NCBI GenBank assembly: GCA_040220235.1
Contig: JAVJTO010000063.1
From: Coleofasciculus sp. B1-GNL1-01
Lineage (GTDB): Bacteria; Cyanobacteriota; Cyanobacteriia; Cyanobacteriales; Coleofasciculaceae
Reading direction: 5' to 3' (one strand)
DNA: 64,000 nt
Below the pieces are notes generated by a model that ran no database searches, had not been told where the DNA came from, and saw only the letters and a list, made by a program, of their open reading frames with translations. Positions 3,661 through 11,637 of the stretch are shown here, in pieces. The position numbers and the translations under genes are program-made. The number at the start of each line of letters is the position of its first letter. Position 1 is the first letter of the stretch.

Positions 3661-4410
3661 TTAGAGGATTTGGTGAATAGTCTCAATAACCTGCTCAACA
3701 AAATTAACTGCATCGCTGACGAGAATTTCATCAATGTACCAGCGGCTTCCGATATTATATGTAGGATCTATATCAGCTTCATGAGCAATTTTGTTTCTAC
3801 GATCAACTATCGCACTCAGTTGTTGTTTAACATCTTTGGCGGATCTGCCAAACTTCTGAGCAACCTCTTCCCACAATTTTTTATCTGAAATTAGTCGAAT
3901 GGCATCGGCTATTTTTTCAGGTTGCTGAAAGCTTTGATAGCTAAGACGTTCTCGAACTTTATCTTCTAGCCAAGAGGCATTATTCAGTCTGTTCAAAATG
4001 CCACTTGATATAACTGGGAGCAAAGCCGAAACTGTGTGAGATTGCTGCAAAAATGAGGAACCTTGACTTTGTTGAATTTCATTCTCTAACCAGGATGCAA
4101 TATCCATCGCTATCAATCGTTCTTGTCGTGCGCCACCTAGGGAAACTTGAAAACGAGAAAATGCAGATTGAGAACTGTTGCGTGGAGGATTAGGTTCGGA
4201 ACGCTGACCCCTGTGAATTTCTAGCATTCCTAGAGTTACAACTTCATGGATATAGTAATCCAAGGCGCTCACAGCTAGAACTAGAGCAGCTCTCAAAATA
4301 TCTGACAAATCTAGAGCGGTAGTAGATTGAGCCTTGACAGAGTTGTGAAGAGAAATCAGCTCTCGAACACGAACAATGCTGATTCGGAATTGATCAAGCG
4401 CTGACTGCAT
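3661..4410 (-). CDS. HEPN domain protein (RiboL-PSP-HEPN-like), putative RNase
   Basis: DILRAALVLAVSALDYYIHE helix; RRNKIAH RxxxxH motif; overlaps the parA stop by 17 nt. Confidence 0.8.
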   Translation of the reverse strand: MQSALDQFRISIVRVRELISLHNSVKAQSTTALDLSDILRAALVLAVSALDYYIHEVVTLGMLEIHRGQRSEPNPPRNSSQSAFSRFQVSLGGARQERLIAMDIASWLENEIQQSQGSSFLQQSHTVSALLPVISSGILNRLNNASWLEDKVRERLSYQSFQQPEKIADAIRLISDKKLWEEVAQKFGRSAKDVKQQLSAIVDRRNKIAHEADIDPTYNIGSRWYIDEILVSDAVNFVEQVIETIHQIL

Positions 4411-5467
4411 AGGAAGGAGAAGTGAGTCCTATAATCTTATCGGCTAAATCCGAAAATGTGCTTTCAAATTGTTCTTGCTTATCTTGAGCTTTTTCTATAA
4501 CATTGCCCTGCCATTTAGCAGAACGTAATTGCTCAGGTGTCAAGGCATAGACGGGTACTTGATACTCCTGTGACAGAGCGATTAACCTATTAAAGTCGGG
4601 AATTTTCGTAAGAGTGTAACTTTGATCAATACCATTCTCCCTATAAAGTTGATCGGGAAGCATCATGTTATTTTGCCTCAGAACGGGAATCAGTTTTTTA
4701 GGAATATCCTGTTCAATTCTTCGCATCCATGTTTCAAGAGCAGCAGTTTCATGGCCGCGAATAATCCGAAAGTTTTGGACAATAATACCTAAAAAGCGTA
4801 GTGTAATATCAGGAAATGGATAGGATGCTGCTTTCAATACAGGAAGCGAACTAGCCTGTTTCGCCCAGGCATACCATTTAGGTAAAATTTTAGCTAATGA
4901 ATCAATTGCCATTACAGAAAATAAATCGGCAGTAGTCGGTACTATAAAAAAGTCACTGGTCATTAGTAAATTTTGATTGATTGCTCCTAAGCTGGGAGTC
5001 ATATCAATCAAAATGTAATCTGCACTAAACTTTTTAGCCGTTTTATCTAATAAATCTGTGATAGAGCCGGGTAAGTTTTTGAGACCCTGAATTGAGCTAC
5101 CTAACTCTTGAGCAATTCCCAACGTGGCTTCATATTCTGCAAAACCAACATGACCAGGCAATAAAAACAGTCGTTCTTGTCCCTCAATGGGAATGCAATC
5201 TACTGCCTCAATAGCCCTGGGCTGTGACTCAAATGCTGGTGCTAGCCCTGTTCTAATATTTGAATCTGTACTGTAAATCGCCTCAATTCTTTCCTCGCCG
5301 CTCTCTGTTCCTTGCCCTAAAGCCATACCCGTTAAATTACACTGGGGGTCAGTATCTACAAGAATTACTGTTTTTCCCTTTGAGGCAAGCATCCAACCAA
5401 GATTAAATGTGGTTGTAGTTTTGCTAACTCCGCCTTTGTGATTAAAGAGGGCAATTTTTTGAACCAT
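4394..5467 (-). CDS. ParA/Soj-family ATPase (orphan, no parB)
   Basis: Deviant Walker A KGGVSKTT, VDTDPQCN, YILIDMTPSLG. Confidence 0.9.
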   Translation of the reverse strand: MVQKIALFNHKGGVSKTTTTFNLGWMLASKGKTVILVDTDPQCNLTGMALGQGTESGEERIEAIYSTDSNIRTGLAPAFESQPRAIEAVDCIPIEGQERLFLLPGHVGFAEYEATLGIAQELGSSIQGLKNLPGSITDLLDKTAKKFSADYILIDMTPSLGAINQNLLMTSDFFIVPTTADLFSVMAIDSLAKILPKWYAWAKQASSLPVLKAASYPFPDITLRFLGIIVQNFRIIRGHETAALETWMRRIEQDIPKKLIPVLRQNNMMLPDQLYRENGIDQSYTLTKIPDFNRLIALSQEYQVPVYALTPEQLRSAKWQGNVIEKAQDKQEQFESTFSDLADKIIGLTSPSYAVSA

Positions 5468-5578
5468 TGCACTTACCGCCTCTTAGTTGTTCAACTTTAT
5501 GTTTTAGTATAACTTGATTCTGACTCTTCCGGACTTACTCTGCAAAATGGTTAGTTTCAAGAACTCCCATGCTAGCTC

Positions 5579-5707
5579 TAAGCTGTTCGGCATTTAAACC
5601 TTAATGTCTAATAATGGCGAAAGCCTTGTAGTGCGTTTAGCGAAGCCATGCCGCAGGCTTTGCATCTTGCTCGCTACTAATACCCAATTTAAATGCATGA
5701 CAGCTTA
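5579..5707. mobile_element. MITE-like element, family A (TAAGCTGT...ACAGCTTA), carrying a 26-nt internal insert
   Basis: 8-bp terminal inverted repeat with TA ends; related copies at 16787, 17628 and 37373. Confidence 0.75.
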
Positions 5708-5819
5708 CCTAGGTTTTATACCCCAATAGTCACCTGAGCAGCACAGAATTGAAATACAAAGCCTTGCTAAAATGGAATTACAGCAGTTTGCTCGGCTATG
5801 CTGTACATTGTCGATCCCC

Positions 5820-6110
5820 CTAAATCCCCCATGAAACAAAAAGCGAAGCATCCTTGGTAGGAATGGGTAATTGTTCAGCTTCAAATTTACTGTAAAATCT
5901 ATAAGCAGGAGGACAAACAGAACCGTATCGCCATGCTTGGATTTCTTCATCAAACAATGGCTCATCGTACAAGGCTAAATGTAGACTTTGTACATAATAC
6001 AGAAGCTTTTGAACCTTCATATTGGTCATTTCAGCTTCTATACCGTCCTCGTATGCTCTGACAATGAAGTAGCGAGCTGCATTGAAACATAACTCAACTA
6101 ACGATACCAC
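5820..6110 (-). pseudogene. Panacea (DUF4065/SocA-like) antitoxin, 3'-truncated
   Basis: MTNMKVQKLLYYVQSLHLALYDEPLFDEEIQAWRYG motif; after LPIPTK the frame enters a dispersed repeat and stops, lacking the family's later TH...PW motif. Confidence 0.75.
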
Positions 6111-6187: not shown

Positions 6188-7498
6188 TTATCTCGCTTGC
6201 AAACTTGACTCAATTGTATAATCCTTTGATACTGGAATGGGTTCTACCAGCGAAAAGCCCAACAAACGCAGACCCCAACGCTCAAACCAAGGTACAGATA
6301 ACCCCCATCGCATCTTAGTTAAGAAAAATCGCTCAAAGGCAATCTTTAACCAGCTTACCCAACGACCGCGTTTGGCGATCGCACGTCGCCGTTGACCTGT
6401 TTTGGGATTAGGTAAAACGGGATCAGCTAAGAAGACAATTCCTGTATCACCAAAATCCGCCATACAAATCGCTGCTAAGGTTGGCGTCACCGATGCCGCT
6501 TGAATCACACCCAATTCTCTGGCAATATTGTGCGCCACCGCCATACCCATCGCCTCCGCCATTTGCCCCGTTTTTGGCACACCGATAGGCAATGGTGTCT
6601 TTTCCGGTGGCGATAACTGCACAACCACTCCCGCACTATAGATAGAGGGAAATGAGGGATGCTGATACGTCGGTAATACAGGTAGAAAACCCTTGTGATC
6701 ACTCAACCCAGGGACATCTCGGACAAAGCTTGGTCCCCGGAACGGCGGTAGCAGCATGGCGTAATGGAATGGTAGCCTATGACCTTCTGCTAAGGTGATC
6801 TGTTGGGGATGAATGGCAGTAATTTCAGCATTCTCAATCACCTCAATCTGCCGTTGGCGCATTAATTCAGTCACCAATTCCGCCGAATCTGCCATACCCC
6901 CAATTCCCAAATGACCCCCATAAGGTTCTGGGGTGACAAACGTAATCGGTACTTTTTCTCGCAATCCTTGTCGCCGCAGTATCCAATCGGCTAATAGGGC
7001 AAACTCATAAGCCGGTCCCATACAACTCGCACCCGGAACCGCCCCCACAACCAAGGGTCCAGGATTTTCCAGAAATTTCGCCCACGCTTCTTTTGCCATC
7101 AAAGCATGGTGAGGATTGCACACCGATTGGGTGTAACCGTTATCAGGTCCTAATCCTGGTATGGTATCTAGGGCTAATTCTGCTCCGGTAGCAATCACTA
7201 CATAGTCATAATTAATAGTTCTGTCTCCCACCCTTAACCATTGAGCATGGGGGTCAATATCCGTTACCTTACCTTGAACAAACTCAATTTGACGGGATTT
7301 TACCACAGAAGCAATATCTACTTGAATTCGCTGGAGTGGAGTTAAATTGAACGCAACCCACGGGAGAGAGGGAATAAACGTAAATTTAGGTTTGTCACAA
7401 ATTAACGTAATTTGGTGGACGTGAGGCAGGAGATGCCGCAGTTCGTAAGCGGTGGGTAGTCCGCCAATACCCGCACCGATTACCACAATATGAGCCAT
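6188..7498 (-). CDS. sqr: Sulfide:quinone oxidoreductase, type I (SqrA-like)
   Basis: MAHIVVIGAGIGG FAD motif; three conserved Cys in SVCNP, GASCMGPAYE and AAICMADFGD; VPKTG; likely start ATG 7498. Confidence 0.92.
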   Translation of the reverse strand: MAHIVVIGAGIGGLPTAYELRHLLPHVHQITLICDKPKFTFIPSLPWVAFNLTPLQRIQVDIASVVKSRQIEFVQGKVTDIDPHAQWLRVGDRTINYDYVVIATGAELALDTIPGLGPDNGYTQSVCNPHHALMAKEAWAKFLENPGPLVVGAVPGASCMGPAYEFALLADWILRRQGLREKVPITFVTPEPYGGHLGIGGMADSAELVTELMRQRQIEVIENAEITAIHPQQITLAEGHRLPFHYAMLLPPFRGPSFVRDVPGLSDHKGFLPVLPTYQHPSFPSIYSAGVVVQLSPPEKTPLPIGVPKTGQMAEAMGMAVAHNIARELGVIQAASVTPTLAAICMADFGDTGIVFLADPVLPNPKTGQRRRAIAKRGRWVSWLKIAFERFFLTKMRWGLSVPWFERWGLRLLGFSLVEPIPVSKDYTIESSLQAR

Positions 7499-7520
7499 GA
7501 TTACACCACTGTTTATTAAC

Positions 7521-7549
7521 ACTATACAACTTTGTAACTATATTTACAA
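7521..7549 (-). promoter_or_regulatory. Predicted sqr promoter (TTGTAA-N17-TATAGT) overlapped by palindrome TTGTAA-N6-TTACAA, which also fits the NtcA box GTA-N8-TAC
   Basis: Plus strand 7532-7549 TTGTAACTATATTTACAA; -10 (ACTATA on plus) at 7521-7526. Confidence 0.6.
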
Positions 7550-7610
7550 TCTATATGGACTGAGCCGCACTCCACGAACGCGAGATGCCAAAACGAAATA
7601 CCTTTACCCT

Positions 7611-7677
7611 GTAGGGGCGACCCGCTTGCATCAATCAACAACTGGCGTCCACTCAATCGGTTCGGGTCGCCCTCTAC
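7611..7677. repeat. GTAG-tagged REP-like inverted repeat
   Basis: GTAGGGGCGACCCG...CGGGTCGCCCTCTAC. Confidence 0.75.
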
Positions 7678-7730
7678 GAAGCATCACCAGCACCTGAAGT
7701 AGGTTAAGCACATCTCATACAACTTATTGC

Positions 7731-7760
7731 TTGACTAAATAGCCAAATAGCTATTAAACT
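7731..7760 (+). promoter_or_regulatory. Predicted petC-operon promoter TTGACT-N18-TAAACT with an operator-like palindrome AATAGC-N6-GCTATT in the spacer
   Basis: -35 at 7731-7736, palindrome 7738-7755, -10 at 7755-7760; RBS GGAGGA at 7795-7800. Confidence 0.55.
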
Positions 7761-7805
7761 AATTAACAAATCGTAAATTTTTTTTACACAAATCGGAGGA
7801 TATCC

Positions 7806-8339
7806 ATGGAAGACAGTCTATCGATGCAAAGTCCCTCAATGTCTCGGCGACAGCTTCTCAACTTCCTCACCGGAGCAACTATCGCCGCTACAGCTAGCGC
7901 CGCCCTCTATCCAGCCGCTAAATTCTTTGTCCCACCCCAAGAAGGGGGCGCAGATGGTTCGATTATCGCCAAAGATAAATTAGGGAATCCCATCCCCGTG
8001 TCCCAGATAGTAGCCCAAGGTGCAGGTACCCGTGCTTTGGTCGCGGGTTTAGCAGGTGAACCGACGTATTTAACCGTTACCGACGATAACACCTTAGACT
8101 CAATCGGAATTGTCGATAACTGCACCCACTTAGGTTGTACCTTTCCTTGGAACAATATCGACCAACAATTTCAATGTCCCTGTCACGGGTCTCGTTATAG
8201 TCCCGATGGTTCTGTTGTCCGGGGTCCGGCTGACCGTCCCCTAAAACTGGTGCAGGTTAATATCGAAGGCGACTACATCCGCATAGCGCCTTGGACGGAA
8301 ACTGATCCCCGCACTGGGGAAACACCGTGGTGGGTGTAA
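7806..8339 (+). CDS. petC: Cytochrome b6f Rieske iron-sulfur subunit (petC paralog without adjacent petA)
   Basis: Tat RRQLL, CTHLGC and CPCHGS boxes, [15 protein letters not shown]-terminus. Confidence 0.92.
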
Positions 8340-8578
8340 ACTTTAATCATTTTGTCTGATACCAAGTTTGTATGACGTTGCACTTTTACCCCACCGCCTA
8401 CGGCACCTCCCTTTAGTAAGGGGAGGTTGGGAGGGGTGAATGAGTATTAGGGGCAATGTTATGAAGAAAGGGTATGGGATTTCCTGGTATTTCCCACGTT
8501 CCTATAGACTTTCGGTCAAATATGTCTACGGAAACAGCAACGTCATTGAATTTTAACATGTTGAATTGGAAATAACTT

Positions 8579-8956
8579 ATGAACTCTGTCTGTTCTTTTT
8601 CTCCTTCTGTCAAAGACTGTTCTCCCCAAGAATTTGTCCACTCTGCAAATCAGCCTTTACTTATCGATGTCCGCAGTGGGTTTGAATATGCCATGGGTCA
8701 CGCTCCCAGCGCAATTAACCTCAGTTTACCCCGCCTTATTATCGGCATGATCCCGATGTTTCGCCGCTGGGTTTTACCGCAATGGTTCCAAGATTTGCCC
8801 AAAGACAAACCCATTGCCGTTATTTGTTTAACCGCCCATCGCAGTCCTATTGCTGCCAAACAACTAGCTAAAGCGGGTTTTGCTAAAGTGTTTAACATCA
8901 CGGGCGGTATGGTGGAATGGCGACGGTTAGGCTTAGAGATTCAAACCAATTCGTAA
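8579..8956 (+). CDS. Single-domain rhodanese (sulfurtransferase)
   Basis: LIDVRSGFEYAMGHAPSA, active-site loop CLTAHR, GGMVEW. Confidence 0.88.
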   Translation: MNSVCSFSPSVKDCSPQEFVHSANQPLLIDVRSGFEYAMGHAPSAINLSLPRLIIGMIPMFRRWVLPQWFQDLPKDKPIAVICLTAHRSPIAAKQLAKAGFAKVFNITGGMVEWRRLGLEIQTNS

Positions 8957-9033
8957 GGGAATCGCTGCTAGGAAACAAGCTGGATGCTAACTTGCTACCA
9001 TGAAAGTTCCCTAATTGTGAATGGTAAATCGTT

Positions 9034-9720
9034 ATGGTCTTAAAAATACAACCCTGTTCAAACTGGTACAAACAATTATTTGCTTGGGGAATGGCGAAGG
9101 CAAACGCAGCCGATGAAAATGCTATTCAATTGGCAAATTGCAGTAGCCATTCTACCCTAGCTCAACTCAAGCAGGCTTTATTTGCCGACTTGCAGGGGAA
9201 AGTCTTAGAAATTGGACCAGGCGCTGGGGTTAATTTAGAGTATTATCCCACTGACATTCATTGGATAGGCGTTGAACCGAATCCCTTTATGCATTCCTAC
9301 CTGGAACAGGAAGCCGAACAGGTTGGGTTGAACAGGATTGATATCAAAAGTGGGTCGGCTGAACGGATTGAGGTTGAGGATAATAGTGTGGATGCTGTCG
9401 TCAGTACCTACGTTCTCTGTTCCGTCAGCAATCTTCCCGCAACCGTACAAGAAATTCGGCGAATTCTCAAGCCAGGAGGTCGCTTTTTGTTTGTTGAACA
9501 TGTGGCGGCTGAATGTGGCAGTTGGCAACGGCGGATTCAAGGTAGCATTGAGCCGATTTGGAAAACGGTGTTTGATGGGTGTCGCCCGAATCGGGAAACC
9601 TGGCTGGCATTAGAAAAGGCGGGATTTGAAAACCTAAATTATCAACAGTTTCAGGTTTCTTTTCCAATTGTTAGTCCTCATATTTCTGGAGTGGCTACTA
9701 AAAGTAGAGATGTGTCATAA
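9034..9720 (+). CDS. Class I SAM methyltransferase resembling TMT1A/B (METTL7)/MddH thiol methyltransferases
   Basis: VLEIGPGAG, EPNP, SVDAVVSTYVLCSV, LKPGG, EHVAAECGSW, FDGC, PHISG. Confidence 0.8.
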   Translation: MVLKIQPCSNWYKQLFAWGMAKANAADENAIQLANCSSHSTLAQLKQALFADLQGKVLEIGPGAGVNLEYYPTDIHWIGVEPNPFMHSYLEQEAEQVGLNRIDIKSGSAERIEVEDNSVDAVVSTYVLCSVSNLPATVQEIRRILKPGGRFLFVEHVAAECGSWQRRIQGSIEPIWKTVFDGCRPNRETWLALEKAGFENLNYQQFQVSFPIVSPHISGVATKSRDVS

Positions 9721-9742
9721 CAGGAGTTTGGGAAAAGCCAGG

Positions 9743-10086
9743 GAGCCAAGAAATAAATTTCTGGCTTAAAGCTAAAGTAAGCTAAAGCTTACTGGATAAG
9801 TCTTTCTCAGTTCTCTAAAACCATTAAAACTATGCAACTCACGAAAAAAAATCTGCCTGAACGTCTGAATCATAAAGTCAGTCTTGTTTGCTTGTTGCGG
9901 GTGGAGACTCTTTAGGTTAAATGGCATGCTCCTTAAGCGAAATGTTGTTGGCTTGAGAGCCAAGAAATAAATTTCTGGCTCAAAGCTAAAGTAAGCTAAA
10001 GCTTACTGGATAAGTCTTTCTCAGTTCTCTAGAACTATTAAAACTATGCAACTCACGAAAAAAAAATTGCCTGAACGTCTGAATCA
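9743..10086 (+). repeat. 130-bp direct duplication (9743-9872 and 9957-10086) covering the upstream region and first codons of the flavoprotein gene
   Basis: Near-identical copies offset by 214 nt; ATGCAACTCACGAAAAAAAA at 9832 and 10046. Confidence 0.9.
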
Positions 10087-11044
10087 CATTTATGATGCGA
10101 TTGTCGTCGGCGGCGGTGCCGGTGGATTTTCTGCTGGAATCTATCTGCAACGATTTCGCCTTTCAAGCTTAATTATTGATAAAGGCAAAGCTCGCTCATT
10201 CTGGATGCAGGAATTGCACAATTATTTAGGCTTACCACCGGATACTCCAGGTCGCGTTCTGTTGCAACAAGGGAAACAGCATTATACCTCTTTAAACGGT
10301 GATATGCTGAATGGTTATGTTGAAGAAGTGGTGGATGAGGGAGATAGGTTTGCCGTGCGGGTAAAGGTGGGTCGTAAAAATAGTATTTACCCCGTATTCC
10401 GCTCGAAATACTTAATTGCTGCGAGTGGCATTATCGACAATTTACCCCCTTTGGAGGATATGCAAAATGTCTTTGATTATGCAGGATATAACTTACACGT
10501 CTGTATGGTTTGTGATGGCTACGAAATGACAGATAAACAATGTGGTTTCATTGCGGGTAGTGAAGCCAGTATTGAAGAAATGGTGTTTAATCTCAGTTGG
10601 TTTACTCCTTATATCACCGTGTTCACTCATGGACTGTTTGCGGTGAGTGACTCAATGCGTTCTCAACTGCACAATCATGGTTATCGTTTGGTGGAAACCC
10701 CGATTAAGAAATTTCTGGGTGAAAATCACCAGATGACGGGAGTTGAGTTAGTGGATGGGTCAATTATTCCCTTAGAAACTGGATTAATTTCTATGGGGTC
10801 ACGCTATCACAATACTTATCTCCAAGGATTCAATTTAGATGTCAAGGGTAGTAATCTGATTACCGATAAAATGGGGCGGACGTCTCACCCGCGAATTTTT
10901 GCGATTGGAGACTTAAAAGTGGGGTTAAATCAAGTGGTTGTGGCGGCTGGAGATGGTGCTTTAGCAGCGACTCAGATTTGGCGAGATATTCGTCGGGAAT
11001 CCGGTTCTCGCCGCTGGGAGGAAAATCTAGCGGTTTCTGTTTAG
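10046..11044 (+). CDS. Thioredoxin-reductase-like FAD oxidoreductase with CxxC
   Basis: DAIVVGGGAGG, HVCMVCDGYE, TSHPRIFAIGD. Confidence 0.85.
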   Translation: MQLTKKKLPERLNHIYDAIVVGGGAGGFSAGIYLQRFRLSSLIIDKGKARSFWMQELHNYLGLPPDTPGRVLLQQGKQHYTSLNGDMLNGYVEEVVDEGDRFAVRVKVGRKNSIYPVFRSKYLIAASGIIDNLPPLEDMQNVFDYAGYNLHVCMVCDGYEMTDKQCGFIAGSEASIEEMVFNLSWFTPYITVFTHGLFAVSDSMRSQLHNHGYRLVETPIKKFLGENHQMTGVELVDGSIIPLETGLISMGSRYHNTYLQGFNLDVKGSNLITDKMGRTSHPRIFAIGDLKVGLNQVVVAAGDGALAATQIWRDIRRESGSRRWEENLAVSV

Positions 11045-11139
11045 TGAGCCGGAAGTCAATAACCAAAGCCTTGAGCAATGGTGCATTACTACAATTGCCC
11101 AAAATCAACAAACGAAAAACAACTCAATTAAGGATCAAA

Positions 11140-11637
11140 ATGATGAAAAGTAAAAAAATGATATCAGGATTAATCCTGGGATTATTACTGGTTTTAACTC
11201 TGCTAGGTGGTGTATTTTTGCCTAAATCTGCCCTAGCTGCCGTAGAATCTAAGGTGACGAGTCCACCTAGCGCAGAAGTCTATACAGCAGTCGATCAGTT
11301 GCTGAATTCGCTACCACGAGATTACTACACAGTAATGCAGGTAAAGCAGTTAAAGAACAAGCTCAAAAAGCGGGATAATGTCGTATTGGTTGATGTGCGA
11401 GAACCGTCTGAATATGATTCAGGACACATTCCTGGCGCTATTAATATTCCCGTGCGATCGCTCACCAAAAATTTGGATAAAATTCCCACGGATAAACCTG
11501 TAATTTTATACTGTTCGAGTGGGCATCGCACGGCAATTGGCATGACGGCGTTGCGGTTGTTAGGGTACACGAATGTTCGCAGTTTTCCTCCCAGTATTAA
11601 TGGCTGGAAGGCGGCTGGCGAACCGTTGGAAAAATAA
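11140..11637 (+). CDS. Exported rhodanese (Sec-type signal peptide)
   Basis: Start ATG 11140: MMKSKK, hydrophobic stretch, SALA/A; DVREPSEYDSGHIPGA; CSSGHR loop. Confidence 0.85.
   Translation: MMKSKKMISGLILGLLLVLTLLGGVFLPKSALAAVESKVTSPPSAEVYTAVDQLLNSLPRDYYTVMQVKQLKNKLKKRDNVVLVDVREPSEYDSGHIPGAINIPVRSLTKNLDKIPTDKPVILYCSSGHRTAIGMTALRLLGYTNVRSFPPSINGWKAAGEPLEK

Follow-up and report, generated by a model that had tools for sequence, protein, structure and literature searches.

A modular sqr-petC2-rhodanese-DDOR cluster of Coleofasciculus that probably belongs to a scattered ArsR-type regulon for sulfide and sulfane sulfur

Described systems and the Coleofasciculus cluster

The reduction of plastoquinone with sulfide by sulfide:quinone oxidoreductase (SQR) is established (PMC5061849, PMC5776472). 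No other enzyme has been identified for sulfide-driven photosynthesis in cyanobacteria (PMC5776472), a process that Coleofasciculus performs with the type of sqr present in the DNA analyzed here (PMC5061849). The subject of this report is a cluster of six genes, sqr, petC2, rhd1, a methyltransferase gene, the gene of a diflavin-linked disulfide oxidoreductase (DDOR) and rhd2, located in a 64,000-nt stretch of DNA from Coleofasciculus sp. B1-GNL1-01 that is called the window as a whole. Coordinates are in window numbering unless a contig (C) or locus (L) is named, and the genome that contains the window is designated G000.

The closest described arrangements share parts of this cluster. A type I sqr flanked by petC2 has been published for the Thermostichales, with a proposed role in hypoxic electron transport; DDOR, the methyltransferase and an operator are not mentioned in the main text of that paper (PMC11304991). 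The occurrence of sqr beside arsR and low-oxygen psbA has also been published. The sqr-arsR operons of Geitlerinema PCC 9228 and of Synechocystis (suoRSCT) resemble the present locus in that a type I sqr is under ArsR-type control, with low-oxygen psbA nearby in other genomes, and differ from it in that the present cluster has no internal regulator and includes petC2, two rhodaneses and DDOR; passages of the paper give no binding site (PMC5061849). In the SqrR, BigR, SoxR and sHdrR regulons, which include sqr, pdo, rhodanese and tauE genes, a two-Cys ArsR-type repressor is likewise found with genes of sulfur oxidation and transfer (PMC10451225, PMC8960804), whereas the cyanobacterial ArsR subfamily falls below the BigR cut-off and the regulon described here reaches photosynthesis genes.

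The cluster is conserved but modular, a variant of the known sqr-rhodanese-ArsR type. The explanation that we favor, with a probability of roughly 0.6, is that it constitutes one arm of a sulfide/sulfane-sulfur response regulon under an ArsR-type repressor that acts at a palindrome in the petC2 promoter. It is probably one part of a dispersed regulon rather than a self-contained island. The new content is a sulfur-linked clade of DDOR proteins together with a shared operator-like site; the sqr-petC2 linkage was already known. A literature search, with figures, most supplements and most subscription papers outside its scope, found no paper that links DDOR to sqr or describes the operator.

All six open reading frames (ORFs) were present in the ORF list of the window in the arrangement and orientations given by an earlier note on this DNA (Table 1). 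The ATG start of sqr lies at 7498, while the ORF finder had chosen a GTG at 7522, and tblastn found no second copy of the gene in its genome. The best PDB matches of its product were full-length, to Aquifex 3hyv (E 7e-101) and the 3sz0 series (E 1.5e-93), those to 3h8i (E 2e-30) and to mitochondrial enzymes (E about 1e-13) being far weaker, and its three cysteines aligned with those of the Aquifex protein. Judged by these matches the product is a type I SQR, in agreement with the earlier note. The petC of that note was confirmed as a cytochrome b6f Rieske protein that passes NCBIfam NF045928 (score 293, cut-off 250) and lies apart from the petC-petA operon, the petA-linked copy on contig C102 being 50% identical. 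Across genera, Rieske homologues split in two identity bands (65-74% and 47-54%). We infer the PetC2 isoform label from the context beside psbA in another genome (G044, L060) and from PMC11304991.

Table 1. Features of the cluster in window coordinates
Feature	Coordinates	Strand	Basis
sqr, type I sulfide:quinone oxidoreductase, 436 aa, Cys127/159/345	6188..7498	-	PDB matches, tblastn
Predicted sqr promoter	7521..7549	-	
Short dispersed repeat, about 100 genome copies, between the sqr and petC2 promoters	7608..7673	.	
Predicted petC2 promoter, -35 at 7731, -10 ending 7760	7731..7760	+	
Palindromic operator-like site, 16 bp, in petC2 promoter spacer, score 16.9	7739..7754	.	
petC2, 177 aa, second Rieske protein for cytochrome b6f, with both Rieske motifs	7806..8339	+	NCBIfam, genome comparison
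rhd1, single-domain rhodanese, active-site Cys83, two-helix hydrophobic insertion at about residues 50-71, predicted membrane-associated	8579..8956	+	
Class I S-adenosylmethionine (SAM) methyltransferase, 228 aa	9034..9720	+	
Direct duplication of 130 nt (9743-9872 and 9957-10086, 96% alike), dispersed repeat and first DDOR codons	9743..10086	+	
DDOR, sulfur-linked clade, CxxC at 153-156, without NADPH motif, extra Cys166	10046..11044	+	
rhd2, rhodanese that keeps the active-site Cys and has a predicted signal peptide	11140..11637	+	

A DDOR clade linked to sulfur genes

The earlier note recognized the DDOR gene product as a CxxC flavoprotein and missed its identity. The sequence matches point to a diflavin enzyme, DDOR, since the best PDB matches were Slr0600 of Synechocystis (5jri, E 4e-134) and Gll2934 of Gloeobacter (5n0j, E 3.5e-117) and the next PDB match had an E value of 4e-26. 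The likeness to Slr0600 and Gll2934 includes a full-length match, the CxxC, the FAD motif and the absence of an NADPH motif. DDOR has been described as carrying two FADs per subunit and lacking an NADPH or thioredoxin site, with glutathione as a possible donor, an acceptor that is not known and no settled role; its usual neighbours are PrxII and PerR genes (PMC9025218). Another paper regards it as probably an oxidase and connects it with oxidative stress (PMC6262485). The closest named relatives of the present protein, 95-98% identical, belong to Coleofasciculus genomes.

A tree was built from 91 DDOR rows, obtained from the best 80 of 234 relatives and 21 further loci after 9 duplicates were merged and 1 partial sequence was omitted. 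All 91 rows have the CxxC, the FAD motif is present, the glycine-rich NADPH motif is absent from the commonest segments after the CxxC, and W53 and Y145 are nearly invariant. Loci where DDOR has a neighbouring sqr, petC2, rhodanese or methyltransferase gene number 44, and all of them fall in a single clade of 52 rows (SH-aLRT, an approximate likelihood-ratio support, 92 in a quick search), so that such neighbours occur at 44 of the 52 rows inside the clade and at none of the 39 outside it; the neighbours were labelled by identity to the proteins of the window, 7 of the 39 outside rows had flanks of 1.5 kb only, and distant DDORs are under-sampled. The 39 other rows adjoin TetR, GST, glutaredoxin or PrxII/PerR genes, the last at L076-L079, where the genes are presumably PrxII and PerR. 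PrxII and PerR were not among the neighbour families that recur at three or more loci of the sulfur-linked clade. The present clade thus adjoins sulfur genes, whereas the published neighbours of Slr0600 and Gll2934 are PrxII and PerR. It also differs in sequence: the CxxC is CMVC in 45 of the 52 clade rows, and an extra cysteine, Cys166, stands in place of Val or Ala in 50 of 52 clade rows versus 5 of 39 others. This cysteine may be merely structural.

Among the 45 clade rows outside Coleofasciculus, petC2 is near DDOR in 23, sqr in 22, rhd1 in 16, rhd2 in 15 and the methyltransferase gene in 9. Other frequent neighbours are ArsR, pdo (persulfide dioxygenase-like, with a metallo-beta-lactamase fold), tauE, DUF442, psbA, acsF, heme oxygenase, hemN and hdr-like genes. 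At L093, L107 and L108 five of the genes again stand in the order sqr, petC2, rhd1, methyltransferase, DDOR; elsewhere DDOR is directly divergent from sqr (L099 and L102), follows petC2 (L095) or follows rhd1 (L110).

An evenly drawn sample of 300 other cyanobacterial genomes was also surveyed, with linkage counted by hand from coordinates. It contained type I sqr in 32 genomes, petC2 in 37, DDOR in 40 and the methyltransferase in 12. The petC2 gene was present in 21 of the 32 genomes with type I sqr, within 10 kb of it in 11 and back-to-back with it in 7; this grouping is more than chance. It was also present in 16 of the 268 genomes without type I sqr, and it has been described as a low-oxygen isoform (PMC11304991), so that the "dedicated Rieske" of the earlier note was an overstatement. 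A DDOR with at least 75% identity (next value 71%) was taken as close, which is a proxy only, as members of the clade reach down to 69%. Close DDORs occurred in 10 genomes, 9 of them with type I sqr and 7 of these with both genes within 10 kb. Other DDORs occurred in 30 genomes, 11 with sqr, and in none of these 11 were the genes that near. The methyltransferase gene is the loosest member of the cluster: it has sqr nearby in 2 of the 32 sqr genomes, and it adjoins a close DDOR in 4 of 10. The earlier note had named a lack of conserved linkage in other sqr-positive cyanobacteria, together with a lack of co-induction by sulfide, as what would refute its proposal; by synteny, the linkage holds well beyond Coleofasciculus.

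The clade has one origin and, therefore, its 44 loci are not independent; Fisher tests on the neighbour counts overstate for the same reason and were given no weight. This would fit an explanation in which the genes adjoin through co-transfer or shared ancestry of a mobile block, DDOR and SQR being functionally untied. In its favor, sqr has often been transferred among cyanobacteria (PMC11304991) and a petC-psbA-NifX-like-methyltransferase block, its Rieske gene being petC2, is found on the conjugative Stanieria plasmid pSTA7437.01 (L173, 194104-197722). However, DDOR has remained part of the set despite many rearrangements, as at L099, L102, L095 and L110, and it has its own site of the palindrome described below in 4 of the 22 cases in which it can start a unit. 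We consider it very improbable that mobility alone explains the linkage.

The operator-like palindrome and its candidate regulator

The motif was learned by an unsupervised palindrome search of 52 sqr and petC2 upstream sequences from other genera, with the present genome left out. Its total was 529, compared with 122-143 in four shuffles (15 seeds for the shuffles, 40 for the real set). Scores come from the raw matrix and about seven of the listed sites lie in a small coding sequence, so ranks may shift a little. The site in the petC2 promoter is the best of the window and ranks third among the 6125 ORF-upstream windows of the genome. The best of the genome's 8.66 million positions (score 19.2) lies just upstream of the pdo-rhodanese-tauE genes on contig C40, an operon at C40:43582-45875 (L177) whose middle gene is of the rhodanese/YgaP type. 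Scores of at least 16 were reached at only four upstream windows: that of pdo-rhodanese-tauE (rank 1), that of an unrelated ORF, that of petC2 and that of a gene whose family recurs at nine fetched loci. Three of the four represent families that also occur at the loci fetched for sqr, petC2 and DDOR. The gene at C51:79821-80491 (L179), with a strong site and a family recurring at nine fetched loci, has no Pfam match, and its product resembles DUF2202 ferritin-like proteins (Atlas, score 0.91).

Intergenic sites scoring at least 12 numbered 71 in 31 of 43 loci of the sulfur-linked clade versus 2 in 2 of 32 other DDOR loci, or 13.1 per 100 kb (training sites included) versus 0.5. Families on which the motif was not trained also have it upstream (pdo in 6 of 7 cases, arsR in 9 of 17), and a strong site, partly from training, is found at 22 of 26 sqr genes elsewhere. 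Broken or remnant sqr genes beside psbA or arsR, at L048:9372-9746 (G019) and at L047, still have motif sites. A CoA-disulfide reductase-rhodanese fusion at C119:56927-58573 (L176), with the architecture of NADH-dependent persulfide reductases, has a site of score 9.7 upstream. The earlier note spoke of one co-regulated module. The shared operator-like site fits co-regulation; the module is not self-contained, with the pdo operon and the candidate regulator located elsewhere.

Members of one ArsR family, found at 26 of 110 clustered loci, likely bind the palindrome as predicted repressors. An alignment of the linked proteins, read by eye, placed a cysteine near helix 2 in 25 of 27 and near helix 5 in 26 of 27. 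Cysteines in helices 2 and 5 are the arrangement of the BigR and SqrR persulfide sensors (PMC8960804). In sister genomes the candidate arsR, located at L162:4769-5179 in one of them, lies beside sequence that matches a contig end of the present assembly, at the start of C47. A real loss of the gene from the present genome was rejected as the default explanation because its flanks end at contig borders there.

In the same sister genomes arsR is divergent from an hdrC-hdrB-hdrA-hdrC-hdrB operon. This operon was seen in several cyanobacteria (L162:5479-9950, L164-L166, L053, L054, L093 and L102), divergent from a two-Cys ArsR and with the same palindrome upstream; its order resembles that of the sulfur-oxidizing sHdr complex. 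A title-level literature search found no paper on sHdr in cyanobacteria, and the operon was not found in the present assembly, save for one distant hdrB. Another element of the sqr upstream region, a putative NtcA-type box (7534-7547), overlaps the predicted sqr -35 region. Upstream of sqr, 6 of 7 Coleofasciculus genomes retain this box, but none of the 24 other upstream regions listed has it, and it was rejected as a shared signal on this account.

A number of observations weigh against a sulfide/sulfane-sulfur regulon. A close DDOR is missing from 23 of the 32 sqr genomes, none of the 45 clade loci outside Coleofasciculus carries all five partner genes (six carry four of the five), and DDOR has been lost in 2 of the 9 Coleofasciculus genomes compared. 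The match on the sqr side of the present locus (7526-7541) scores 5.0, a value reached by 631 of the 6125 upstream windows and not significant, and 2 of 6 petC2 promoters from sister genomes score 7.4 only. The candidate ArsR scores 43 against the BigR cut-off of 155 (NF040642), and a search of the present assembly did not find it. The motif also precedes psbA (8 of 10), acsF (3 of 4) and heme oxygenase (2 of 4) genes, in some cases from a divergent promoter that also serves a training gene. It precedes petC2 or psbA in G043 and G044, both without a type I sqr match.

Because of these last sites, a low-oxygen signal remains a rival. The regulon would then answer low oxygen or general redox state, sqr would be one of several micro-oxic genes, and DDOR would be a general thiol oxidase for oxic-anoxic transitions. 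The occurrence of petC2 in sqr-negative genomes is consistent with this explanation, as are the descriptions of petC2 as induced at low O2 (PMC11304991) and of DDOR as probably an oxidase with a tie to oxidative stress (PMC6262485, PMC9025218), and the palindrome may be where the known low-oxygen cluster of psbA and petC2 is controlled. Nonetheless, the strongest site of the genome is at the pdo operon, whose persulfide dioxygenase (PDO) acts on sulfane sulfur and needs O2 (PMC9426444), sulfur genes are among the commonest neighbours of the DDOR clade, and the linked ArsR regulators show the two-Cys pattern of persulfide sensors. For these reasons we regard oxygen or redox control as a serious, if unlikely, alternative. 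The palindrome was seen before both psbA and petC2 at L060:5078-7665 (G044) and at L059, in genomes without type I sqr. In Synechococcus PCC 7002, polysulfide is reported to induce petC, the isoform being unstated in passages of the paper (PMC12466478).

The resident cluster and its possible role

The remaining genes are two rhodaneses and the methyltransferase. Both Rhd1 and Rhd2 passed Pfam PF00581 with the active-site cysteine kept, and the six-residue catalytic loop is kept in 26 of 27 Rhd1 and 25 of 25 Rhd2 homologues. The hydrophobic insertion of Rhd1 is conserved among its homologues, and the predicted structure of Rhd1 matches GlpE and PDO-rhodanese fusions. The hydrophobic N-terminal stretch of Rhd2 (residues 11-27, KD17 hydropathy 2.82) suggests export to the lumen or periplasm. 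A complex prediction for a DDOR dimer with Rhd1 scored 0.01 and was used neither for nor against any reading. The methyltransferase has a SAM glycine motif at residues 61-65 and an acidic residue, Glu81, about 20 positions on; these are generic for class I methyltransferases and therefore weak for grouping it with TMT1/MddH. A likeness to these thiol methyltransferases is presumed. Searches of families, PDB, protein sets, Atlas and plasmids returned no specific family and no named thiol methyltransferase among the matches. Methyltransferases of the MddH/TMT1 group, which are of similar size and have a UbiE-like class I fold and a glycine-rich SAM motif, methylate H2S (PMC11445057, PMC12904073), and a supplement to this work gives MddH counts for a few cyanobacteria. 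They differ from the present gene, which is linked to sulfur genes, in that mddH is reported to be unlinked to such genes in most hosts. The enzyme is probably an accessory member of the cluster that possibly methylates thiols.

Nine Coleofasciculus genomes, including the present one, were compared. The six-gene order is intact in five (G000, G002, G004, G005 and G007, the last with its sqr truncated at a contig border) and is split by contig ends in G003 and G008. G001 has sqr, petC2, rhd1 and the methyltransferase gene followed by an internally deleted DDOR remnant and by ORFs that are presumably transposase-like. G006 retains the methyltransferase gene and rhd2 only, with a joint that corresponds to window positions 9805 and 11130. 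The natural DDOR deletions begin at 9805, which is the repeat end of the direct duplication. A similar joint (9805 to 11139) occurs in contigs from 3 of 4 mat runs, where the depth of DDOR is below that of its flanks; as the left side of this joint is a repeat, it is only a weak hint of DDOR loss.

The earlier note took the genes for a self-contained island, transcribed together and equipped with a dedicated Rieske protein and an H2S methyltransferase. The conserved order in five genomes agrees with such a model, as do the five-gene order at L093, L107 and L108 and the H2S-methylating activity of methyltransferases of similar size class in other bacteria (PMC11445057). However, the GC content of the cluster matches its flanks, no tRNA gene adjoins it (the only one of the first 25 kb is 2.5 kb away), and in sister genomes the genes are lost piecemeal, not all or none, at the same chromosomal place. 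The cluster is therefore a resident one that loses parts, not an island. Other members of the regulon lie on other contigs, and the methyltransferase gene is rarely near sqr and remains in G006 after sqr was lost. We consider the island model improbable.

The spacers between the five co-oriented genes, from petC2 to rhd2 (7806-11637), are 239, 77, 325 and 95 bp long. The first (8340-8578) is single-copy in the genome, mostly absent in G005, and folds more stably than its shuffles (z -3.1); it could attenuate or process the transcript. RNA-library contigs (4 of 12 listed runs) covered genes, spacers and flanks evenly, in a DNA-like manner, and consequently they were uninformative on expression or operon structure. 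A cassette 3' of sqr (3661-6110), variable in content among strains, holds a ParA-like ATPase gene, a HEPN RiboL-PSP gene and a short ORF of 96 aa, longer in G007, that resembles SocA/Panacea antitoxins. The stretch 5579-5710 is a dispersed repeat, about 130 nt long and matched some 250 times in the genome.

If the cluster belongs to a sulfide/sulfane-sulfur regulon, the following pathway can be proposed. The ArsR-type repressor would hold the regulon off at the palindrome until released by sulfane sulfur. SQR passes electrons from sulfide to plastoquinone, an established step, and from there they would reach a b6f complex carrying PetC2. Rhd1 may accept sulfane sulfur at the membrane and Rhd2 may carry sulfur outside the cytoplasm. 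Thiols, or thiols loaded with persulfide, would give electrons to DDOR, which would pass them through its CxxC and two flavins to an acceptor. In this way it could balance the thiol/persulfide pool when the O2-dependent route, in which PDO would oxidize sulfane sulfur, is limited. That DDOR acts directly on sulfane sulfur is possible, at somewhat less than even chance.

The DDOR clade, through its tie to sqr, lets both the role of DDOR and sulfide-driven photosynthesis be tested directly, and natural strains with and without the gene exist. The palindrome offers a concrete site and a gene list for the control of the switch to anoxygenic photosynthesis, with which sulfide and low oxygen can be separated as signals. 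A more far-reaching proposal, tentative and rather doubtful at present, is that the clade is the missing soluble thiol:sulfane-sulfur oxidoreductase of sulfide-adapted cyanobacteria and that one persulfide-sensing ArsR operator switches both sulfur genes and genes of micro-oxic photosynthesis (petC2, psbA, acsF). The dark sulfur reduction of Coleofasciculus is cited in PMC9426444; DDOR is one candidate for it, besides the CoA-disulfide reductase-rhodanese fusion on C119 and a peroxiredoxin (PMC9426444), and its described direction, which is oxidative, counts against this role. If the proposal were true, DDOR, together with the rhodaneses, would recycle the sulfur that SQR produces and might explain how Coleofasciculus mats reduce sulfur in the dark, and sulfane sulfur would be the signal for the change to anoxygenic photosynthesis.

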